In this document: positions 13,993 through 26,996 of the stretch, one piece after another
How the letters are laid out: the number at the start of each line of letters is the position of its first letter
How positions within the stretch are numbered: the first letter of the stretch is position 1
IMG/VR virus record: IMGVR_UViG_3300027782_000038
Length of the DNA: 64,000 nucleotides
Direction: 5' to 3' (one strand)
From: a virus
Program-made: the position numbers and the translations under genes
Notes under the pieces: generated by a model
Seen by the model: the letters and a program-made list of their open reading frames with translations, nothing else
Database searches by the model: none
What the model was told of the DNA's origin: nothing

Positions 13993-14055
13993 TGTTGTTT
14001 TTTAGCAACACTCATCAAAAAATCTATTGACAGGACCTATTATCTATAGTATAAT
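13993..14055 (+). promoter_or_regulatory. Palindrome TGTTG-N8-CAACA plus sigma70 promoter
   Basis: Palindrome 13993-14010; TTGACA(14027)-N17-TATAAT. Confidence 0.75.
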
Positions 14056-14760: not shown

Positions 14761-14835
14761 CTGGCGTTCGTATAGTGGACAATACAGTAGGCTTCTACCC
14801 TTCTAACGGGAGTTCGATTCTCTCACGCCGGACCA
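14761..14835 (+). tRNA. tRNA-Arg(TCT)
   Basis: Cloverleaf, loop CTTCTAC, TTCGA, CCA. Confidence 0.88.
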
Positions 14836-16032: not shown

Positions 16033-16557
16033 ATGCAATTAAGTATAGTTGGTTGTCCTGATAAAAAACTATTCAGACCATACGTCAAACGTGCAATTTT
16101 ATTTTATGCTGAAGAATTGTTTAGTAAGAAAATGTCAGAAAACGTATTTCTACAAGTTAAATTTAATGCTGAATTAGATGTTTATGGTTACGCTTCCGTT
16201 GAAGATTGTAATAGTAGTGGTAAACCAAGAGAATTTTTAGTAGAAATAAATTCAGAAATTGGTGCACCTGATATTTTAAAAACAATTGCACATGAAATGG
16301 TTCATGTTAAACAATTCCTTTATGGTGAAACCAACGAAACATTAACTCGTTGGAAAGGCATGAAGATATCAAGTGATACTAATTACTATTGTCAACCTTG
16401 GGAAATAGAAGCTCATGGAATGGAAGTTAGTTTGTTCTCAAGGTTTGCAATCAAGGAGAAACTTTGGGACGTATTTGAAGGTGTAAATAATCCGGACGGT
16501 CCGGTAAAACAAACGGATATTGGTTGGAAAGAATCATTTTTGAATAGTACGTTGTAA
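16033..16557 (+). CDS. Zinc metallopeptidase-like protein
   Basis: AHEMVH and PWEIEA. Confidence 0.7.
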   Translation: MQLSIVGCPDKKLFRPYVKRAILFYAEELFSKKMSENVFLQVKFNAELDVYGYASVEDCNSSGKPREFLVEINSEIGAPDILKTIAHEMVHVKQFLYGETNETLTRWKGMKISSDTNYYCQPWEIEAHGMEVSLFSRFAIKEKLWDVFEGVNNPDGPVKQTDIGWKESFLNSTL

Positions 16558-16592
16558 AAATACAACAAGTTTGGTATATATTAAGAAAAATC

Positions 16593-16621
16593 TTGCCTAT
16601 ATACATATATAAGAGTATAAT
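16593..16621 (+). promoter_or_regulatory. sigma70 promoter driving the leader peptide
   Basis: TTGCCT-N17-TATAAT; palindrome copy at 16550-16567. Confidence 0.7.
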
Positions 16622-16657
16622 TGTTATATTGAATGAATTAAAACAAAAGGAAATATC

Positions 16658-16756
16658 GTGTTATCAATACAGAAACCATCCATGCATACAGAGTATCGCA
16701 CACCGAGCAATTGGTCAGCGATTGGCTTTGATTGCGTCCGTGGGGTTTGTGTATAG
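16658..16756 (+). CDS. Candidate attenuator leader peptide, 32 aa, contains all 20 amino acids
   Basis: AAGGA RBS, GTG start, MLSIQKPSMHTEYRTPSNWSAIGFDCVRGVCV*; absent from ORF track. Confidence 0.75.
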   Translation: MLSIQKPSMHTEYRTPSNWSAIGFDCVRGVCV

Positions 16757-16821
16757 TTAGAAAGTAGTTTCCTCTAAATTTACAAACCCCAAGACCTAAA
16801 AAATCTTGGGGTTTTTCTTTT
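16741..16821 (+). terminator. Antiterminator/terminator switch
   Basis: Terminator AAACCCCAAGA(16784-94)/TCTTGGGGTTT(16804-14) plus T tract; competing TGGGGTTTGT(16741-50) pairs ACAAACCCCA(16782-91). Confidence 0.8.
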
Positions 16822-16823
16822 CC

Positions 16824-16885
16824 TGTTGTACAAAAACAACACTTTAGAAAATAGTTGTTGACATAGTGTGTGGAACCTGTATAAT
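16824..16885 (+). promoter_or_regulatory. Palindrome plus sigma70 promoter upstream of the tRNA array
   Basis: TGTTGTACAAAAACAACA; TTGACA(16858)-N16-TATAAT. Confidence 0.7.
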
Positions 16886-16937: not shown

Positions 16938-17013
16938 TGGGGTATCGCCTAGAGGCCTAAGGCATCGGTCTTTGAAATCGAGATCACTGGTTCGAATCCA
17001 GTTACCCCTGCCA
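16938..17013 (+). tRNA. tRNA-Gln(TTG)
   Basis: Loop CTTTGAA, CCA. Confidence 0.9.
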
Positions 17014-17121
17014 TATTGAAGTACATTCAAGGCGTAGCGCACGCTGATATAGTGGACATAGCTAAGCTCTGAACAGGCATTGTTGGCAGGTTCGATTCCT
17101 GCGGAGTGTATTTCAATATGG
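17011..17121 (+). ncRNA. Structured RNA with a T-arm inside a long closing stem
   Basis: CCATATTGAAGTACATTC / GAGTGTATTTCAATATGG enclosing GCAGG-TTCGATT-CCTGC. Confidence 0.5.
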
Positions 17122-17213
17122 TAAGTAAGAATAGACGAAAAGTCACCGGTGAGACTAGATGCTTTGGCAACAGAGCTAGGTTTATTCTTGTCGATCTTGG
17201 CCAATCGACACCA
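17120..17213 (+). ncRNA. Multi-hairpin RNA ending in ACCA
   Basis: AAGAATAGAC/GTTTATTCTT stem, GCTTTG-GCAA-CAGAGC hairpin, TGTCGAT..ATCGACA-CCA. Confidence 0.45.
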
Positions 17214-17235
17214 TATTAATATGGTATTAACAAAT

Positions 17236-17323
17236 GGGTAGGTGGTAGAGTGGTCTATTGCTCCAGTCTTGAAAACTGGCGACTGGAAACGGTCCGTGGG
17301 TTCGAATCCCACCCTGCCCTCCA
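17236..17323 (+). tRNA. tRNA-Ser(TGA)
   Basis: Loop CTTGAAA, long variable arm, CCA. Confidence 0.9.
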
Positions 17324-17374
17324 TTATTGAAAACCAAAATGTACTAAATAAAGTCATACATTTTGGAGATAAAA

Positions 17375-17818
17375 ATGCAAAAAAGATCATCAGCTAGAGA
17401 TTTAGCTATACAGGAAAATAAAAAAACTTATTTAGCTAAACCTTGTAAATCATGCGGTACAAGTGAAAAATATGTAAGTAGTTATAGTTGTGTGAAATGC
17501 AATATTGAAAAGAATTCACATAAATTATTTAATAGTGATTTGATGGAAAAATACAGATCAAAATCAATATTAAATGCAAAAACATATAGGTATCGTTCTA
17601 GAAAAAGAAACCAGATGCCTGATGATGCAGATAAAGAAAAGATATTGGAGTTTTATAAAGAAGCAGAACGATTAACTGAAGAAACAGGAATCTTGTATAG
17701 TGTGGATCATATAATACCTTTATCGAAAGGAGGTCTACACCATCATGATAATTTACAAGTTATCACATTAAGTGAAAATAGTAGAAAGGGGAATAAATTA
17801 TGCCAGCCGTTTTCTTAA
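17375..17818 (+). mobile_element. HNH homing endonuclease
   Basis: CxxC pairs, VDHIIPLSKGGLHHHDNLQ; late promoter-like ACTAAATA at 17343. Confidence 0.88.
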
Positions 17819-18396
17819 CATCAGATAGCCACTTCGGCCACGCCGGTGTTTGTCGTTTTACACACCAAGATACAGGTGTAAAAATTAGACCATGGACAGA
17901 TCCAGATGAAATGGATGAAGCGATGGTCAAACTCTGGAACGAAAAAGTAGGTAAGAATGATAAAGTATATCACCTTGGTGACGTAGTAATTAACCGTAAA
18001 GCTCTTGGTATTATGCGTAGACTTAACGGTGATAAAGTTCTTATTCGTGGTAACCATGATATTTTTCGTGATGATGAATACCGCCAACATTTCAGAGAGC
18101 TTCGTGCTTATCATGTAATGAACGGAATGATTCTTTCACATATTCCACTTCATCCAGATAGTGTAGGTAGATTTGGTACTAACATTCATGGACACCTTCA
18201 TACGAACCGTGTTATGAAGGCGAAAGGAATTAATTATCCGACTGGAGAAATTATCTACAGCGAAACGGAGATTGATCCACGTTATCATTGTGTTTGTGTT
18301 GAACAAACAGATTTTACACCAATTCTTTTTGAAGATGTAATTAAGAGAATTGAAGCACAAGGTGGCAAGGTAGGTTTTCAGAACGGAAATGGGTAG
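17800..18396 (+). CDS. Calcineurin-like metallophosphoesterase
   Basis: DSHFGH, LGD, GNHD, HGHLH. Confidence 0.9.
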   Translation: MPAVFLTSDSHFGHAGVCRFTHQDTGVKIRPWTDPDEMDEAMVKLWNEKVGKNDKVYHLGDVVINRKALGIMRRLNGDKVLIRGNHDIFRDDEYRQHFRELRAYHVMNGMILSHIPLHPDSVGRFGTNIHGHLHTNRVMKAKGINYPTGEIIYSETEIDPRYHCVCVEQTDFTPILFEDVIKRIEAQGGKVGFQNGNG

Positions 18397-18478
18397 TTGG
18401 CCGAGCGGTTAAGGCAAGGGATTGCTAATCCCTCATTGGGAAACCGATGGATAGGTTCGATTCCTATACTACCCGCCA
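18391..18478 (+). tRNA. tRNA-Ser(GCT)
   Basis: Loop TTGCTAA, long variable arm, CCA; overlaps upstream stop codon. Confidence 0.9.
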
Positions 18479-18486
18479 TTTTTAAT

Positions 18487-18564
18487 AGTGCGATGGCTGA
18501 GTGGTCAAAAGCAACGGATTGCAAATCCGTAAAATCGTCAGTTCAAATCTGACTCGCACTTCCA
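18487..18564 (+). tRNA. tRNA-Cys(GCA)
   Basis: Loop TTGCAAA, U73, CCA. Confidence 0.9.
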
Positions 18565-18626
18565 TGTTGTAAGAAAACAACAGATTGTAAAATACTTGTT
18601 GACATATTGTGTGGTTCATGTATAAT
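18565..18626 (+). promoter_or_regulatory. Palindrome plus internal sigma70 promoter
   Basis: TGTTGTAAGAAAACAACA; TTGACA(18599)-N16-TATAAT. Confidence 0.7.
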
Positions 18627-18646
18627 AGAGTCTATTGTTTAGTAAT

Positions 18647-18721
18647 GCACCGTTAGACTTCTGGTGAGGTCACCACCCTTTCAAGGTGGCTAGATGGGAT
18701 CGTAACCCATACGGTGTACCA
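18647..18721 (+). tRNA. tRNA-Glu(TTC)
   Basis: Loop CTTTCAA, atypical T loop, CCA. Confidence 0.85.
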
Positions 18722-18728
18722 GTTTAAT

Positions 18729-18804
18729 GCAGGCATAACTCAACTGGTAGAGTAATCGGCTTTTAACCGATAAGTTGTGAGTTCAAGTCTCACTGCCTGT
18801 ACCA
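18729..18804 (+). tRNA. tRNA-Lys(TTT)
   Basis: Loop CTTTTAA, CCA. Confidence 0.9.
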
Positions 18805-18818
18805 AAGAATTTTTTGGT

Positions 18819-18892
18819 GTGACTATGTTGTAACGGTAGCAACGCAGTTTGTGATTCTGCTAGTCTGGGTTCAACTCCCAGTAGTCACCCCA
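18819..18892 (+). tRNA. tRNA-His(GTG)
   Basis: Loop TTGTGAT, C73, CCA. Confidence 0.87.
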
Positions 18893-18904
18893 AAAAGTTT
18901 TAAT

Positions 18905-18979
18905 GGCTCGTTAGTATAATGGTTATTACAGAGGATTGTCTATCCTCCTATGGGAGTTCGATTCTCCCACGGGTCGCCA
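18905..18979 (+). tRNA. tRNA-Asp(GTC)
   Basis: Loop TTGTCTA, G73, CCA. Confidence 0.88.
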
Positions 18980-18983
18980 AGTT

Positions 18984-19078
18984 TTGCACCTGGCGTAATG
19001 GTAGCGTTACAGGTTAGTATCGAAAGGTATGCCCGAGAGGCGATGCGGGAGGTGCAGGTTCGAATCCTGCGGTGCAAA
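18984..19078 (+). ncRNA. tRNA-like RNA without a canonical anticodon arm
   Basis: TTGCACC/GGTGCAA acceptor, D-loop-like TAATGGTAG, perfect T arm, two small internal hairpins, no CCA. Confidence 0.55.
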
Positions 19079-19088
19079 AAAAGTTTAT

Positions 19089-19172
19089 GCGTTGGATGCT
19101 CTAATGGTAGGGCAGCGGGCTGTAACCCCGTGGTTTTAGGACAAGTAGGTTCGATCCCTACCCAACGCACCA
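19089..19172 (+). tRNA. tRNA-Tyr(GTA)
   Basis: Loop CTGTAAC, variable arm, CCA. Confidence 0.88.
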
Positions 19173-19242
19173 AGTTTTATTTGGAGAACACTTTAATTGT
19201 ATAAATTGTTCAATTTATAAATACTCCAAAAAGGAGTGTGAT

Positions 19243-19806
19243 ATGTGGTCTTGTAAACATTGTAACGAAGAATTTAATTTTATTACGACTAGTGAAAAAG
19301 GTAATCATACTAGATGGTGTGAAAAAAATCCAAATAGAGTTAGTGTTAATCTTTTAAATTCTATAAAAAATAGAATGATCAATAAATTTGGTGATTATAA
19401 AAAATTTGATGTTATTTGTAATGAATGTAATACAATTTTTATTGTAGAAGAAAGATATAAACTTTTTCCTTCAAAAGAAAAATACTTTTGTTCACGAAAC
19501 TGTGCAAATAGTGTTGGTGGTAAAGCTAAAAGAGAAAAGTATGGTTTAACCGGATATGTTTCTATTGCAAAACAATTTTATGAAGAAAAATGTATAGTTT
19601 GTGGTTATGATGAATTAGTTGATGTTCATCATATAAATGGAGATAGGAATAACAATGAAGCAACAAATTTAGTGTTCCTATGTCCAAATCACCATTATCT
19701 TTTACATAGAAAAAAATCAGAAAAAGTTAAACAAGCAATTTCAGAATTTATAGAAAAAAAATGGGGTCAAGGTGTTGATGACGGCACACGAGATTTGCAA
19801 TCTTGA
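19243..19806 (+). mobile_element. HNH homing endonuclease
   Basis: Zinc motifs, DVHHINGDRNNN..NLVFLCPNHH; TATAAATA at 19216. Confidence 0.88.
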
Positions 19807-19837
19807 AGGTAGAGTTTGATTCTCTATGGCTCCACCA
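19763..19837 (+). tRNA. tRNA-Ala(TGC)
   Basis: G3:U70 pair, loop TTTGCAA, CCA. Confidence 0.85.
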
Positions 19838-19859
19838 AGTTTTAAATAGTGTTCTTTGT

Positions 19860-19934
19860 CTGGGTATATTGTCAATCTGGTAGACGGCCTTGTTTGGAAC
19901 GAGGAGGCTGTAGGTTCAAATCCTACTACCCAGA
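19860..19934 (+). tRNA. tRNA-Pro(TGG)
   Basis: Loop TTTGGAA; no encoded CCA. Confidence 0.85.
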
Positions 19935-19947
19935 CAAAGAACATTAT

Positions 19948-20022
19948 GGAAGTATAGCGTAGAGGTAGCGCAGCGCCTTCATACGGCGTAGGTCGTAAGT
20001 TCAAATCTTACTACTTCCACCA
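19948..20022 (+). tRNA. tRNA-Met(CAT)
   Basis: Loop TTCATAC, CCA. Confidence 0.87.
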
Positions 20023-20027
20023 GTTTT

Positions 20028-20102
20028 AGGTCCTTAGTAAAATGAATATTACATTTCGCTACGAACGAAAAAGTGAAGGTTTGATTCCTTCAGGACCTTC
20101 CA
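20028..20102 (+). tRNA. tRNA-Arg(ACG)
   Basis: Loop CTACGAA, CCA. Confidence 0.83.
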
Positions 20103-20176
20103 AGTATTAAATGCTGGGGTGCTCAGAGGAAGAGCAATGTGTTGATCTATACTAAATAAGTATAGGAGAGTAAAAA

Positions 20177-20779
20177 ATGTCAAAATTTCAAATAAAATGT
20201 TGTTGTATTAAATGTAAGATTGAAACTACAACGGGGCAACTTACACGAAATCATAAAGATAAATGTCCGAGTATTAACGTTGTTAAATTTCCTAAAAATA
20301 TAGGAAGAACCGCATGGAATAAAGGATTAACTAAAGAAACTTCTGAATCTTTATCAAAAGCAAGCGAGACTATGAAAAGATTAGGTCACGGTGGGTGGTC
20401 AAAGACAGCTGCTACAAATGGCGGAAAAGCCGGTGGCGGATATAGAGAGAACGCTGGCCGAAGTAAAAAATTCAAAGTAACAGATTCATTCGGAAAAGAA
20501 ACTGTCTTGCAAAGTACATACGAATTAAGATGTAGTGATATATTAAATGAATTAGCAATTAATTGGATTCGTCCAAAAGCGTTAAAATACGATAATAGGA
20601 ATTACTTTGCTGATTTTTACCTGCCAGATTACAATATCTGGCTTGATCCTAAAAATAGTTATAAAGCAAAGCAAGACGAAGAAAAAATAAGAAAAGTGAT
20701 AGAACAAAACAATGTTAAATTATATATTTTGTTAGAAGAACATCTTACTGAAGAATTTATACAACACCTTTGTAGTTAA
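20177..20779 (+). mobile_element. Putative PD-(D/E)xK homing endonuclease
   Basis: AWNKGLTKET, STYE..YFADFYLP..LDPK; ACTAAATA at 20151. Confidence 0.78.
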
Positions 20780-20839
20780 ATGGTATAACAGCCGCTTGAT
20801 AAGCGGCCATTACAAGTTCAATTCTTGTCGAAGGTACCA
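20766..20839 (+). tRNA. tRNA-Ile(GAT)
   Basis: Loop TTGATAA, CCA; overlaps the endonuclease stop. Confidence 0.87.
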
Positions 20840-20845
20840 AGTTTT

Positions 20846-20920
20846 ATCGCTCTAGTGTCAACGGCAGCACAACTGACTCCAAATCAGCTGGTGAGGGTTC
20901 GAATCCTTCGGGCGGTGCCA
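20846..20920 (+). tRNA. tRNA-Trp(CCA)
   Basis: Loop CTCCAAA, CCA. Confidence 0.88.
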
Positions 20921-20928
20921 AGTTTTAA

Positions 20929-21002
20929 GCGGGTATGATGTAAAGGTAACCTGACACCTTGCCAAGGTGTATTTGAGAGTTCGATTCTCTCTACCCGCTC
21001 CA
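20929..21002 (+). tRNA. tRNA-Gly(GCC)
   Basis: Loop TTGCCAA, U73, CCA. Confidence 0.9.
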
Positions 21003-21022
21003 TTTAACAAGGAGAATATATT

Positions 21023-21499
21023 GTGCGTACTATTGATATTCAAGAAGTAAAATCTTTCATCGAGTCTCAGGGTCCTGATACAAAGATTTATATTGGTGGT
21101 GACTCCGAAAGATTTAATCTTGGTAATGTATGGTACGCTGATTACACTCTTGCTATTGTTGTTCATGTGAATGGAAACAATGGTTGTAAAATTTTCGGTG
21201 AAGTTCAACGTGAACGTGATTGGGATGCTAAAAAAGACCGACCACGGATGCGATTAATGAATGAGGTTTATAAGATTGCCGAATTATATTTAAAGTTACA
21301 AGATGTATTAGAAGATCGTGTGGTAGAAGTTCACTTGGACATTAATCCAAACGAAATGCATGGTTCATCTTGTGTTATTAATGAAGCAATAGGTTACATC
21401 AAAGGTATGTGTAATGTTATTCCTTTGGTTAAACCACAAGCGTTTGCTGCTTCTTATGCAGCAGATAGATTGAAGTTTGTTTTAGATAGAGCAGCATAA
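21023..21499 (+). CDS. RNase H-like YkuK/DUF458 family protein
   Basis: IYIGGDS, RLMNEV, EVHLDIN, ASYAAD. Confidence 0.8.
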   Translation: MRTIDIQEVKSFIESQGPDTKIYIGGDSERFNLGNVWYADYTLAIVVHVNGNNGCKIFGEVQRERDWDAKKDRPRMRLMNEVYKIAELYLKLQDVLEDRVVEVHLDINPNEMHGSSCVINEAIGYIKGMCNVIPLVKPQAFAASYAADRLKFVLDRAA

Positions 21500-21500
21500 C

Positions 21501-21575
21501 GGATTCTTAGCACAGCGGTAGTGCGGCTCCCTTACAAGGAGTAGGTCGTAGGTTCAATCCCTACAGAATCCACCA
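21501..21575 (+). tRNA. tRNA-Val(TAC)
   Basis: Loop CTTACAA, CCA. Confidence 0.9.
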
Positions 21576-21580
21576 ATACT

Positions 21581-21656
21581 GCTGACTTAGCTGATGTGGT
21601 CATAGCGGCGGTTTGAAGAACCGTTGAAGTTGGTTCGATTCCAACAGTTAGCACCA
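21581..21656 (+). tRNA. tRNA-Phe(GAA)
   Basis: Loop TTGAAGA, CCA. Confidence 0.88.
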
Positions 21657-21661
21657 GAATT

Positions 21662-21738
21662 GCCTCGGTGACGTAATTGGTAGCCGTGTTGGTCTTAGAA
21701 ACCAAATTCTGTGGGTTCGAGTCCCACCTGAGGCACCA
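21662..21738 (+). tRNA. tRNA-Leu(TAG), short variable loop
   Basis: Loop CTTAGAA, CCA. Confidence 0.87.
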
Positions 21739-21800
21739 AGTTTACCAATATATCACTTGACTTTAAAACTTGAGTGATATATAATAGTATATAAGAGTTA

Positions 21801-21875
21801 GCCCTCATAGTATAATGGCCATTACAGTTGACTTGTAATCATCAAATCCTAGTTCGATTCCAGGTGGGGGCACCA
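21801..21875 (+). tRNA. tRNA-Thr(TGT)
   Basis: Loop CTTGTAA, CCA; preceded by TTGACT..TATAAT promoter at 21757-21785. Confidence 0.87.
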
Positions 21876-21885
21876 AAGTTTTTAT

Positions 21886-21951
21886 GCGGCGTGTTTAGGA
21901 CAGTGAAGGTGACCAACCTGATCTCTAGTGTCGAAACTAGGCGCCGCTCCA
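21886..21951 (+). ncRNA. Miniature or degenerate tRNA-Gly-like RNA (possible ACC anticodon)
   Basis: GCGGCGT/GCGCCGC-T-CCA acceptor, reduced D arm, CTAGT/ACTAG T stem. Confidence 0.55.
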
Positions 21952-21972
21952 GTTTTTTTATTGTGAGATAAT

Positions 21973-22197
21973 ATGTTTGTTAAATTGACCAATGCTAATC
22001 CTGCTTTTTCAGGTAAACCACTTCTTATTAGGAAAGATTTAATTGTGACTGTGTACGAAGGTACACTAACGCATGAGGATACTTCTACTGAATCAGTAAC
22101 GTTTGTTTTTGCACCACCTCATGGTGAGTGGCAAGTTAAAGAAAGTGTTGAAGAAGTATTACGATCATTAAGAATTGCAACAACAAAGTTAGATTGA
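21973..22197 (+). CDS. Small hypothetical protein (FlbD-like pattern)
   Basis: MFVKLT...WQVKESVEEV. Confidence 0.55.
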   Translation: MFVKLTNANPAFSGKPLLIRKDLIVTVYEGTLTHEDTSTESVTFVFAPPHGEWQVKESVEEVLRSLRIATTKLD

Positions 22198-22205
22198 AGT
22201 TTTAT

Positions 22206-22281
22206 TCCCCAGTAGCTCAGTCGGTAGAGCAAAACACTGTTAATGTTTGGGTCATTGGTTCAAGTCCAGTCTGGGGAGCCA
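22206..22281 (+). tRNA. tRNA-Asn(GTT)
   Basis: Loop CTGTTAA, CCA. Confidence 0.9.
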
Positions 22282-22302
22282 TTTTATAAAAAAGGTAGTA
22301 AT

Positions 22303-22500
22303 ATGAAAGCAGTTTTGTCTAGTGTTATATCAGTATTGGCACTTACTGGATGTGTAGTAACAGATCCATATTATGTTCAACCTGTGCCAATATATGTTCA
22401 ACCTAGACCTGTGTATATCGTTCCGCAAGTTCGTTGTTATTATATGCAACAATGGAATGGTTATAAAAGACAATATCAAACTGTTCATATTTGTCGTTAA
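22303..22500 (+). CDS. Small lipoprotein
   Basis: Signal peptide with LTGC lipobox. Confidence 0.7.
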   Translation: MKAVLSSVISVLALTGCVVTDPYYVQPVPIYVQPRPVYIVPQVRCYYMQQWNGYKRQYQTVHICR

Positions 22501-22511
22501 GAAGTAAATAT

Positions 22512-22585
22512 GCGAGATTAGTTTAATGGTAAAACTCCTTCCTTCCAAGTAGGTGTCATCAGTTCGATTCTGATATCTCGCTCCA
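22512..22585 (+). tRNA. tRNA-Gly(TCC)
   Basis: Loop CTTCCAA, U73, CCA. Confidence 0.88.
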
Positions 22586-22606: not shown

Positions 22607-22918
22607 ATGGAAATTATTGCTTTAAAATTAATTACAGGTGAAGATGTTTTAGGTGAACTTGAATCTGAAACAGAACTTGTTGTAGTATTATCTAATCCAG
22701 TTGGTATCGCTGTCGTTCGTGGTAAAGACGGTACACCAAATATCGGATTCTCGCCGTTCCCTATTCATGCGGAACAAAAAAAAGACAACTCAATTGTTTT
22801 CTTAAATAAACACGTTGTTTATCATTATATACCAGCTGAAGATTTTATTACAAATTACAAACAAATCTTTGGTTCAGGTATCGTAGTTCCACCCCAAAAA
22901 CAGATTATTACAGGTTAA
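22607..22918 (+). CDS. Conserved Sm-like hypothetical protein
   Basis: LKLITGEDVLG...YKQIFGSGIVVP. Confidence 0.6.
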   Translation: MEIIALKLITGEDVLGELESETELVVVLSNPVGIAVVRGKDGTPNIGFSPFPIHAEQKKDNSIVFLNKHVVYHYIPAEDFITNYKQIFGSGIVVPPQKQIITG

Positions 22919-24216
22919 TGAGCAAATATTATACAAACGTTCAATGTTTCGGTAACAGTATTCTTTACCGAGGCATTATAGACGGTAAACGTGTTAAACA
23001 GAGAATTGATTATTCTCCATCACTTTATCTCCCATCAAGAAAGAATCCACAGGGAAAATTCAAATCACTAACTGGTCTTCCATTAGATCAAAAAGAATTT
23101 GATGATATTCGTGCAGCCAGAGATTTCATCAAGCAATTTGATGGTCTTCCTGGTGCACCTGTCATCTATGGTCAAAATCGTTTTGAGTATGCTTATATTG
23201 CCGATAACAATAAAGGTATGGTTGATTACGATCAGGATAAAATTCTTATCGGTGTAGTTGATATTGAGGTTGGTTCAGAGAATGGTTTTCCTGATCCATA
23301 CCTTGCAAACGAACCAATCACAGCCATTGGCATTAAGTATCTCAATGGTGAAATGGTTGTATTTGGTTGCGGTGATTATGAGAAGAAAGGTACCGAGATT
23401 TACGTCAAATGTAAAGATGAATGGACACTATGCAAAAAGTTTCTAGAATTATGGCAAAAGAAATGTCCAGATATCATCACAGGATGGAACACAAAGTTCT
23501 TTGATATTCCATATCTCATCAATCGTTTTCGTAAGATTCTTGGTGAAGATGATGCTAAGAAATTATCACCATGGAATTACATTGGTGAACGTAAAACCAC
23601 CATTAATGGTAAACAGTTAATTGCCTATGACATGATGGGTGTTGCATCACTTGATTATATTGAACTATACAAATGGTATGCTCCTGGTGGTAAGTCACAA
23701 GAATCATATCGTTTGGATAACATTGCTCAAAATGAATTGGGTGAAGGTAAAATTTCATATGATGAATATGATAACCTACATTCATTGTATCGTTTGAACT
23801 TTCAATTGTTTATTGAATATAACATCAAAGACGTTGAATTGATTGTTAAGTTGGAAGATAAATTAAAGTTACTTGAGATGGCTGTTACTTTGGCCTACGA
23901 TACTAAATCAAACTATGAGGATGTATTTGCACAGACCCGTATGTGGGACGCAATGACTTATTCTTATCTTTTAGAAAAGGATATCATTGTACCACCACGT
24001 ATCATCAAAGAAAAAGATGGTATGTTTGAAGGTGCATACGTTAAAGAAGTACAAGTTGGTGCTCATGATTGGGTTGCCAGCTTTGACCTAAATTCACTTT
24101 ACCCCCACCTTATGATGCAATATTCCATAAGTCCTGAAAATCTTGTGGAAAGAAGTTATATTGAAGATAGAAAACAAAAATTGATCGAGGAGTTAAAGTT
24201 GAGAAATACTAAATAA
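22918..24216 (+). CDS. gp43: DNA polymerase gp43, fragment 1 (exonuclease plus motif A)
   Basis: DIEV, GWN..FDIPY, YNIKDV, SFDLNSLYPH. Confidence 0.93.
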   Translation: MSKYYTNVQCFGNSILYRGIIDGKRVKQRIDYSPSLYLPSRKNPQGKFKSLTGLPLDQKEFDDIRAARDFIKQFDGLPGAPVIYGQNRFEYAYIADNNKGMVDYDQDKILIGVVDIEVGSENGFPDPYLANEPITAIGIKYLNGEMVVFGCGDYEKKGTEIYVKCKDEWTLCKKFLELWQKKCPDIITGWNTKFFDIPYLINRFRKILGEDDAKKLSPWNYIGERKTTINGKQLIAYDMMGVASLDYIELYKWYAPGGKSQESYRLDNIAQNELGEGKISYDEYDNLHSLYRLNFQLFIEYNIKDVELIVKLEDKLKLLEMAVTLAYDTKSNYEDVFAQTRMWDAMTYSYLLEKDIIVPPRIIKEKDGMFEGAYVKEVQVGAHDWVASFDLNSLYPHLMMQYSISPENLVERSYIEDRKQKLIEELKLRNTK

Positions 24217-24245
24217 GTAGATGTGGTTACTTATTAGGAGAATCA

Positions 24246-24779
24246 ATGAAATACAATATTACCAAAGATAAACTCTATGAATTGTTTATTACCAAGAATA
24301 TGAGAAGGAGTGAGGTTGCCGAATATTTTGGTTGTTCGGATGCCAACATTAAAAAATACCTACAAAAATTTGCCATCAAGAAGCCTTTTGATTTAGAATG
24401 TAAGAATAAAGAACGAAAGGCCTTGTTGAATTGCTTACATTGTAATAATGAATATGAAACACAAAAGTTTCGGACTGAAAGTGATAAGTATGATTCAAAA
24501 TATTGTAGTTATTCCTGTGCTCAAAAAAGTAGATATTTGGGTGGCGACCACAAACGTAGAATCAGAAATGAAATTGCTGCAAGGCGTAGAGCAAGAATTC
24601 GTAACCAAACACCAAAATTGAGTAAAGAAGAAAAGAAAAAGTTACAAGAATATTATTTGATTTGTCCTAAAGGACATGAAGTGGATCACATACAAGCAAT
24701 TGCAAAAGGTGGTTTACATCATCCTGATAACTTACAGATATTGACTATGAATGAGAATAGAAAAAAGTGGTGTAAATAA
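24246..24779 (+). mobile_element. HNH endonuclease inserted in gp43
   Basis: EVDHIQAIAKGGLHHPDNLQ; ACTAAATA at 24207; AGGAG RBS. Confidence 0.88.
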
Positions 24780-25105
24780 TGTTTCGTAATGTAAAAGAAT
24801 TAACAACCGAAGAACTACAAAAAGAAATTCAGGCCATAGAATTATTTGAACAAGAAATTGGTAAAGTCAATGTTGAGAATATGTTGAACAAATCTATTGA
24901 TACTTCTTTTCTTGGTCCAATGAAATGCACCATCACACCTAACGGCCAGATGTTTAGAACCGACCATCAAGGTTTCTTACCAAGAATGATGGAAGAAATG
25001 TATGAAGATCGTAAGAAATTTAAAAAGTTGATGCTCAAGGCTCAACAAGAGTATGAGTTAGTTTTAGCGGAGATTGAAAAAAGAAGAGGTTTGCAAGAAA
25101 AATAA
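24779..25105 (+). CDS. gp43: DNA polymerase gp43, fragment 2 (palm linker plus first finger helix)
   Basis: TITPNGQMF..GFLPRMMEEMYEDRKKFKKLML. Confidence 0.85.
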   Translation: MFRNVKELTTEELQKEIQAIELFEQEIGKVNVENMLNKSIDTSFLGPMKCTITPNGQMFRTDHQGFLPRMMEEMYEDRKKFKKLMLKAQQEYELVLAEIEKRRGLQEK

Positions 25106-25140
25106 TACTAAATAGAGCATGGTCTAAAAAAGGATGATAA

Positions 25141-25917
25141 ATGCCCAATCAATTTAGTGTTATAACAAAAGAAATAGAATCTAAATTAAATGAAATAGAA
25201 AGTATGTTGAAAAGTGGATATAGTGTGGGTGAAATTCAAAAAAAATTGATAAAATATAGTTATAGTGGTATATACAATTGTATTCAAAAGAATGGTTTAT
25301 CCAAATATGTTTCCACTAAAAACATAGGAAAAAGCAGAACATATAAGAAAATGTTAGATGATTATGATAATAACCATGAATTAAATTTTGAAACATTAAA
25401 TCAGTTATATAATGTTGATAAAAAAGATTTATATGAAATTGCTAAAATGTTTGGAGTTAGTCCTTCTGGTGTATTATATCGTATGAGAAAATTGGGTTTA
25501 CAGACCCGAAATAAATCGGAAGCTTCTGAAATCCTTTATATGAAAAAACCTGAACTGAGGGAAACTCATCGTAAAAATGCAAATGAAGGTAAAACAGGAA
25601 TATTCAAAAAAGGAAATAATTATTCAAACACTTGGATAGAAATAGCATTTAGGGAATACTGTGAACTACATAATATACAATTTCAACCACAATTTCAAAT
25701 AACAAAAGATACTCATAGATATGATTTTTTAATTGGCAAAAACATCTTAGTTGAACTTGATGGAACATATTGGCACAACAAGCCAAAACAAAAAGAGAAA
25801 GATGTATTACAGGAAGAATATGCAATAAACAACGGTTTTGTTGTATTGAGGATTACCGATAAACAAATAAAAGAAACAAAAGGTGAATGTTTTGAAATCA
25901 TTAAACGATATGTCTGA
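25141..25917 (+). mobile_element. DUF559/Vsr-like endonuclease with HTH, inserted in gp43
   Basis: RYDF...VELDGTYWH...KD...GFVVLRI; ACTAAATA at 25107. Confidence 0.82.
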
Positions 25918-26996
25918 TTCCGAATTGATTAGTTATAAAAATGAACTGGAAAGGAGAGTTGCAAGATATAATAATTTGCAACTTGCGAAAAAGGTGTCAC
26001 TTTAACTCCGCTTACGGTGCTTTGGGTAGTCAGTACTTTCGTTTTTATGATCTGCGTATGGCACTTGGTGTCACTTCTGCTGGCCAACTTTCCATTAGGT
26101 GGATTGAGTCTAAAATTAACAATTGGATGAATAAAATCATTGGATCTAAAGATGTAGATTATGTTATTGCATCTGATACAGATTCCATTTATCTTCGTAT
26201 GGGTGAATTGGTTGACAAGTTTATCAAAGATACATCCGATAAACAAAAAGTAATCTCACTCATGGATAAAATCTGTGAAGAAAAGATTCAACCATTTATT
26301 GATAAGTCTTATGTTGAGTTAGCTGATTACGTTCATGCATATGATCAAAAGATGCAGATGAAGCGTGAAGGACTATCAGACAAAGGTATTTGGACTGCCA
26401 AGAAACGTTATATTCTAAACGTGTATAATAATGAAGGTGTTCAGTATGCAGAACCTAAGATGAAAGTCATGGGTCTTGAAATGGTCAAATCTTCAACACC
26501 AGCTTCTATTCGTGAAAAGATGAAAGAGTCTATTGGTATTATGTTACGTGGTACTGAACAAGATATTCATAAATTCATTGCTGACTTTAGACAAGAATTT
26601 AAAAAGTTACCTGCTGAAGAAATTTCTTTTCCACGTGGACTGAATGGCTTAGCTAAATACTCAGATGCAGTATCATTGTATAAACTTGGTACACCTATTC
26701 ATGTGAAAGGTGCCATTCTCTATAACAATTATTTGAAACAAAACAATCTTACTAAAAAGTATCCACTCATCCAAGAGGGAGAAAAGGTTAAGTTTACCTA
26801 TTTGAAACTACCAAACCATTTTAAAGATATGGTAATTTCATACCCAAGTAGACTTCCTAAAGAATTAGGCCTTGACAAGTACATAGATTATGATGTACAA
26901 TTTGATAAGGCCTTCTTGGAACCAATCAAAGTCATTCTTAATTGTTTGGGTTGGACAACTGAAAAGGTAAACTCACTGGAAGATTTCTTCAAATAA
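25892..26996 (+). CDS. gp43: DNA polymerase gp43, fragment 3 (motifs B and C, thumb); needs a +1 shift at 26000-26005
   Basis: 0 frame ..YNNLQLAKKVSL* continues in +1 frame as NSAYG..DTDS..KKRY; C-terminal clamp-binding SLEDFF. Confidence 0.85.

Follow-up and report, generated by a model that had tools for sequence, protein, structure and literature searches.

A conserved leader element before the tRNA array of an uncultured T4-like phage: a candidate ribosome-mediated attenuator whose ORF holds all 20 amino acids

We analyzed a 64,000-nt stretch of viral DNA (hereafter the window; IMG/VR record IMGVR_UViG_3300027782_000038), which comes from an uncultured T4-like phage of fresh water. The runs containing the region are lake and freshwater metagenomes. 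The UvsX of this phage, for which a contig as long as 157 kb is on record, is only 58-65% identical to that of its nearest cultured relatives. The element described here lies between a 174-aa gene (16033-16557), which has no Pfam family, and a tRNA array. The features are as follows:

16550-16567, no strand: operator-like palindrome upstream of the leader promoter; function putative
16593-16621, + strand: sigma-70-like leader promoter, match 10/12
16647-16651, + strand: Shine-Dalgarno-like site AAGGA, 6 nt before the GTG
16658-16756, + strand: leader ORF of 32 codons with all 20 amino acids, GTG start, TAG stop
16667-16752, + strand: long hairpin of the untranslated leader, -36.1 kcal/mol, z -2.7
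16741-16751, + strand: antiterminator segment, codons 28-32, pairing with 16781-16791
16784-16821, + strand: intrinsic terminator with an 11-bp stem, 9-nt loop and U tract
16824-16885, + strand: palindrome and perfect-consensus promoter directly 3' of the terminator; possible bypass
16938-22585, + strand: tRNA array, 21 ARAGORN tRNAs plus a tRNA-Ala(UGC) starting at 19763

The original prediction, made from the sequence without database searches, had described a promoter, a Shine-Dalgarno-like site, a 32-codon ORF with every amino acid, a 10-nt complement and a terminator, and all are present as described; the 10 nt at 16741-16750 form an exact reverse complement to 16782-16791. A generic terminator scan missed the hairpin at 16784-16821 because its 9-nt loop exceeds the limit of 8. 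The leader promoter contains the motif GC[CA]TATATA (16595-16603), which occurs once in the window, recurs in many relatives' leader promoters and may be a promoter-class element. Palindromes resembling GTTGT-N6-ACAAC occur six times in the window (13993, 16550, 16824, 18565, 55989 and 57038), also preceding the promoters at 14027, 16858 and 18599 and two others. They sit about 25-35 nt 5' of sigma-70-like promoters, are present in relatives too, and are candidate sites for a phage regulator.

The downstream array comprises 22 tRNAs serving all 20 amino acids (tRNA-Ala(UGC) was detected by Rfam); between the tRNA genes lie HNH, phosphoesterase and RNase H-like genes. Inside it are sigma-70-like promoters at 18599 (12/12) and 21757 (11/12), and late-promoter-like TAAATA sites at 17344, 19217 and 20152. 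The tRNA genes at 14761, 15320 and 15435 lie upstream of the element and outside it. We note several other features of this region. Two stem-closed spacer RNAs without an Rfam family (17014-17120 and 17116-17217) lie 3' of tRNA-Gln; the first has a T-arm-like loop and a 17-bp closing stem that starts at the tRNA CCA. A tRNA-like element at 18984-19078 (Rfam, 39 bits) has an irregular anticodon arm and a long variable region, and is not called by default ARAGORN. Beyond the array, the DNA polymerase is carried in three ORFs (22918-26996) split by two endonuclease-like genes; the ends and beginnings of the pieces carry short charged helical extensions, and the polymerase of the closest relative (L367) is split too.

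Two sequence characteristics of a leader-peptide attenuator are met: (i) a short ORF with a start signal lies between a promoter and the genes to be regulated; and (ii) the antiterminator and terminator exclude each other on folding. The antiterminator is an 11-bp helix (16741-16751/16781-16791; segment -18.7 kcal/mol), and the terminator is an 11-bp helix (16784-16794/16804-16814; -15.2 kcal/mol) followed by a U tract to 16821.

Similar leaders were first found in protein-anchored loci. We then searched with a DNA pattern that comprised the antiterminator and terminator only, with neither an ORF nor a tRNA in the pattern. This returned 164 unique matches, 142 of them with enough flank, and a tRNA lay within 300 nt in 104 of the 142. 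An ORF of 20-50 codons stopping 5-27 nt after the antiterminator start accompanied 99 of 107 tRNA-linked matches, compared with 5 of 22 unlinked ones; most of the eight linked exceptions have a leader-like ORF whose stop is slightly further out. Leader starts were picked by start signal and not by amino-acid diversity. Many of these leaders are apparently leaderless, with an ATG 6-7 nt after the -10 box; the window's subfamily uses a Shine-Dalgarno site, similar ones preceding its GTG and ATG starts. At 60% identity, the 107 tRNA-linked leaders form 36 clusters. At one arm position that the search had left free, the tRNA-linked matches carry 68 T-A, 19 C-G, one T-G and no C-A, whereas the unlinked matches show all four states (11, 2, 7 and 4, respectively). 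The C-G variant comes from only three clusters; the protein-anchored loci supply further compensated variants of the arms, such as GGGGTC/GACCCC and GAGGTT/AACCTC. Covarying arms and an open frame with amino-acid diversity were the checks in relatives that the original prediction had proposed, and both came out in its favor, the second through these frames together with the amino-acid counts given below. In the closest relative, whose UvsX is about 92% identical, the same leader has a 3-nt in-frame deletion that keeps all 20 amino acids.

Protein-anchored loci with arrays of five or fewer tRNAs mostly lack such a leader, and two larger arrays (L421 and L428) also showed none. In bacterial genomes, the DNA pattern found no chromosomal tRNA operon with this leader, which, for one narrow pattern, is no proof of absence; its matches there were only amino-acid leaders and one phage contig that is probably misbinned (L339). 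Among cultured phages, a protein search with the 32-aa leader gave no meaningful match, and at the DNA level the region was unmatched beyond single tRNAs. The leader had no Rfam match, either at the gathering threshold or with E relaxed to 5, and identity with a T-box riboswitch, whose marks are a stem I specifier and a T-box antiterminator bulge, was thereby ruled out. Five other phage loci (L166, L217, L232, L244 and L273) carry a separate leader-terminator type before tRNA-Pro, with leaders that lack the all-20 pattern. At three more (L030, L045 and L399), a terminator precedes tRNA-Trp or tRNA-Glu and the antiterminator match falls at the 3' end of an apparently ordinary gene.

To model the effect of ribosome position we used a truncated transcript, that is, the RNA just before the terminator 3' arm emerges. 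With a ribosome at codons 2 to 25-27 the antiterminator was formed, and with a ribosome at the stop codon it was abolished. Without any ribosome, it formed in 35 of 36 lineages; this co-transcriptional model is partly circular because the search pattern included the pairing. When the full leader is folded to equilibrium, the terminator prevails for the majority of stall positions; the switch must therefore be kinetic, and we rejected the full-length equilibrium model, which keeps the terminator in most states, as wrong for such a switch. The RNAalifold consensus of the family is the antiterminator, and the 16667-16752 hairpin is absent from it. Leader hairpins in the family have a median z of -1.4, and 12 of 36 lineages fall below -2; from modeling, the hairpin of the window might be a pause element or an anti-antiterminator, through which a leader without translation might terminate instead of reading through. 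In all 107 leaders the stop codon lies 7-26 nt 3' of the first antiterminator base, 85 of them having it at 9-14 nt, within a selection that itself allowed 5-27 nt. With exclusive 11-bp helices here and a stop that adjoins the antiterminator across relatives, the attenuator geometry first proposed holds. As far as geometry and modeling alone can tell, a ribosome at the stop would mask the antiterminator and an earlier stall would leave it free.

We next consider what the leader encodes. All 20 amino acids are reached by residue 27; 11 occur once, the maximum is four occurrences and there are no runs, so the tandem control-codon criterion of a classical trp/his/phe-type attenuator is not met. 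The chance of all 20 in 32 codons is 0.0034 if amino acids are used uniformly and 0.0005 if they follow the frequencies of the phage. The leader is the only one of 647 short ORFs in the window to hold all 20, and because of this number its significance within the single window is borderline and the content could be chance. Judged on family data, it is non-random: among clusters of at least 31 codons, 19 of 28 have all 20 amino acids, whereas windows of phage proteins give an expectation of 0.13, and none of the alternative frames reaches 20. Median identity to the window leader is 34%, and close pairs differ by 128 non-synonymous and 83 synonymous codon changes. The peptide thus drifts while its amino-acid set stays, which means that selection is on the set and not on the peptide. 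The last five to seven codons lie beneath the antiterminator or next to it. This leaves 18-20 amino acids open to sensing, the number varying with the ribosome footprint; the sensing zone spans approximately codons 2-25/27, with Cys26 and Val27 borderline.

Codon choice in the leader is also biased. The GC-ending codons pointed out in the original prediction are there (GC3 14/32; ORF GC 46%, window 34%), but the bias is better seen as a leaning toward wobble-read codons. Leaders of the family favor GAG, CAG, CGC, GCG and CCG, and also GAT, TTT, TAT and AAT; with these U-ending Asp, Phe, Tyr and Asn codons enriched too, we rejected GC-ending as the whole explanation. In two-codon boxes the favored codon is the one that the phage anticodon reads by wobble. 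Its excess is seen in 28 of 32 lineages; for His and Lys there is no such bias, and Cys runs in the opposite direction. AT pressure cannot be the source of the G-ending part of the bias, and AT mutation pressure could still account for the U-ending part. We infer that slower codons may sharpen sensing.

We compared leaders with the arrays behind them at 27 loci whose arrays are apparently complete. The more amino acids an array serves, the more its leader has in the sensing zone (rho 0.80). Where the tRNA for an amino acid is in the array, the zone contains that amino acid in 357 of 388 cases (92%), as against 75 of 152 (49%) where the tRNA is absent. Permutation of arrays gives a p-value of 5e-5, and the association holds within the 13 small arrays too, although these p-values are optimistic and overstate independence, because the lineages are related. 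Small arrays come with short leaders that leave out the amino acids they do not serve; those of 22-25 codons typically lack Gln and Asp, and often Ala. There are mismatches: in 3 of 10 small arrays the Glu tRNA has no counterpart in the leader, and most short leaders carry Phe, Ile and Lys codons near their start without matching tRNAs. Across the compared loci, then, the leader set tracks the tRNA set, as expected if control codons reflect what the regulated genes make, and the leader in the window holds all 20 because its array serves all 20. The original prediction had the leader polling nearly the whole charged-tRNA pool; the all-20 leader fits, but content follows the phage's own array instead.

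A further case comes from a cultured phage. Stenotrophomonas phage Moby (MN095772.1) has an unannotated 27-codon ORF (80483-80566) upstream of an annotated terminator at 80597-80619 (element 80483-80619; L479, L481). Its sensing zone contains 13 amino acids, all belonging to the tRNA block behind the terminator, and lacks Pro, Thr, Ile, Arg and His, whose tRNAs are outside that block. By this sequence comparison, Moby is an independent case of the leader-array match; the switch there remains a candidate, and its antiterminator overlaps just ~3 bp of the terminator. The Moby leader lies 3' of a late-promoter-like site and has a 10-nt complement to the terminator arm, and 16 Stenotrophomonas phage records share its region at 98-100% identity. 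No leader was found in the regions scanned of Stenotrophomonas phage DLP6, which has 37 tRNAs. In Xanthomonas phage BUDD (ON758385.1, 152659-152540; L476), a 39-codon leader has 18 amino acids, a strong terminator lies 321 nt before the main tRNA array, and the antiterminator match is only 5 nt.

We think it probable that the element is a ribosome-stalling transcription attenuator that exerts codon-specific negative feedback on tRNA supply, with translation, termination and read-through all inferred. RNA polymerase would begin near 16628, and a ribosome would follow onto the leader. If every codon is read promptly, the ribosome would reach 16741-16751 before the terminator is made; with the antiterminator covered, the terminator would fold and transcription would end at ~16820. 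A stall at any of codons 2 to ~26 would let the antiterminator capture the terminator 5' arm, giving read-through into the array, and fresh tRNAs would then relieve the stall. With about one codon per array-served amino acid, often wobble-read, the leader would therefore report the loss of any replaceable tRNA. A caution is that one codon per amino acid may stall the ribosome too briefly. The only RNA evidence consists of assembled low-depth contigs (X3 and X21), which speak neither for nor against this, because they cannot show starts, ends or levels.

The same single codons without runs would also suit a true translation-coupled attenuator that gauges in general how fast elongation runs or how available ribosomes are, responding to the summed delay over ~25 codons or to failed initiation. 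Formation of the antiterminator without a ribosome in the truncated-transcript model points the same way, since any translation block could then give read-through too. However, such a gauge would not need the rare Trp, Cys and His codons, nor would it have reason to drop Gln, Asp, Cys and Val in front of arrays without those tRNAs, and we regard it as unlikely, if not to be discarded.

Another reading accepts a true attenuator in the family but has the window phage largely bypass it, its array being driven by the promoters at 16858, 18599 and 21757 and by late promoters. The original prediction had itself raised these three promoters as a caveat, and they score 12/12, 12/12 and 11/12; the one at 16858, ~40 nt after the terminator, may bypass the switch in this phage. 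It is variable between phages, though. Of the 107 homologues, 54 have fewer than 45 nt between the terminator and the first tRNA, 30 have no good promoter there and 23 have a comparable one, so that a bypass promoter is absent from ~78% of homologues. It is absent from L367 too, and for most family members transcription has no evident way into the first genes of the array except through the switch. In the window, the leader, helices and all-20 content are intact and nearly identical to those of L367, where this promoter is missing, and the operator-like palindrome of the 16858 promoter may mean that it is repressed or early-only, for which there are no functional data. We consider a predominant bypass improbable. 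A last reading takes the ORF either as the gene of a functional small peptide or as incidental to a structured RNA, and the hairpin as a plain terminator of upstream early genes. It draws on the stable hairpin of the window leader and a short conserved Tyr-Arg motif, but is very hard to reconcile with a sequence that drifts while the amino-acid set, the place of the stop and the pairing of the arms persist, and with the absence of a consensus leader structure.

For the attenuator with codon-specific feedback, the trigger would be cleavage or depletion of host tRNAs; this is an inference, and there are no expression data. We likewise only infer that single codons and a tRNA output suit severe tRNA loss (anticodon nucleases, host tRNA decay) better than mild amino-acid hunger. 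Phage tRNAs counter tRNA-cutting defenses in a manner dependent on expression level (PMC11555353; PMC10264068), and phage tRNA regions resupply the depleted pool in T5 against retron-Eco7 and in T1 and T7 against PrrC170 (PMC11555353). For those regions a strong promoter was described and attenuation was not mentioned. We tentatively suggest, as an idea nearly as apt to hold as to fail, that tRNA arrays behind such leaders are an inducible counter-defense: one test codon per tRNA would reveal the destruction of any single species, whether through host anticodon nucleases or tRNA decay, and turn on its replacement, with leader and array evolving together as tRNA genes come and go. Why phages carry tRNAs has been an open question for more than 50 years (PMC10264068). 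If the attenuator reading is true, phage tRNAs are a response to tRNA shortage and not a fixed codon supplement, and the leader codons are a list of the shortages that the phage is selected to detect.

Attenuators with multivalent leaders are known at thrL and ilvL, and pheM-pheST is an attenuator of phenylalanyl-tRNA synthetase. The latter is alike in placing attenuation on a component of the translation apparatus, and differs in responding to a single amino acid and in having a synthetase, not tRNAs, as its output. T-box riboswitches also use a terminator/antiterminator switch governed by tRNA status, but bind uncharged tRNA directly and have no leader ORF. Leaders of Polynucleobacter leuA (L354, L441-L470) resemble those of the phages in being apparently leaderless, with an ATG ~6-7 nt after the -10 and 22-30 codons, and in having a G-run antiterminator near the stop and a CCCC/GGGG terminator; they differ in being Leu-rich and in preceding a biosynthetic gene. 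From these sequences they could be a source or a convergence, and homology is not established. In the literature that we searched, which did not cover most subscription journals, there was no description of attenuation of phage tRNA genes. The closest likeness is to the leader-peptide transcription attenuators of amino-acid operons, of which pheL-pheA is one (PMC3082878). Like pheL, trpL, hisL and leuL, the phage element has a short leader ORF, an antiterminator under the last codons and an overlapping terminator, and a stall would favor read-through; it differs in that it would control phage tRNA genes and that it has about one codon each for up to 20 amino acids in place of runs for one to three. 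The 1:2 pause hairpin of classical attenuators, which keeps polymerase and ribosome in step, did not emerge as a conserved structure in the RNAalifold consensus, strong though the hairpin of the window leader is. On this comparative evidence the element is real and conserved, and as ribosome-mediated attenuation with a tRNA-gene output, which the papers searched do not describe, it would take attenuation beyond amino-acid genes, to tRNA genes, and beyond one to three amino acids, to all twenty.
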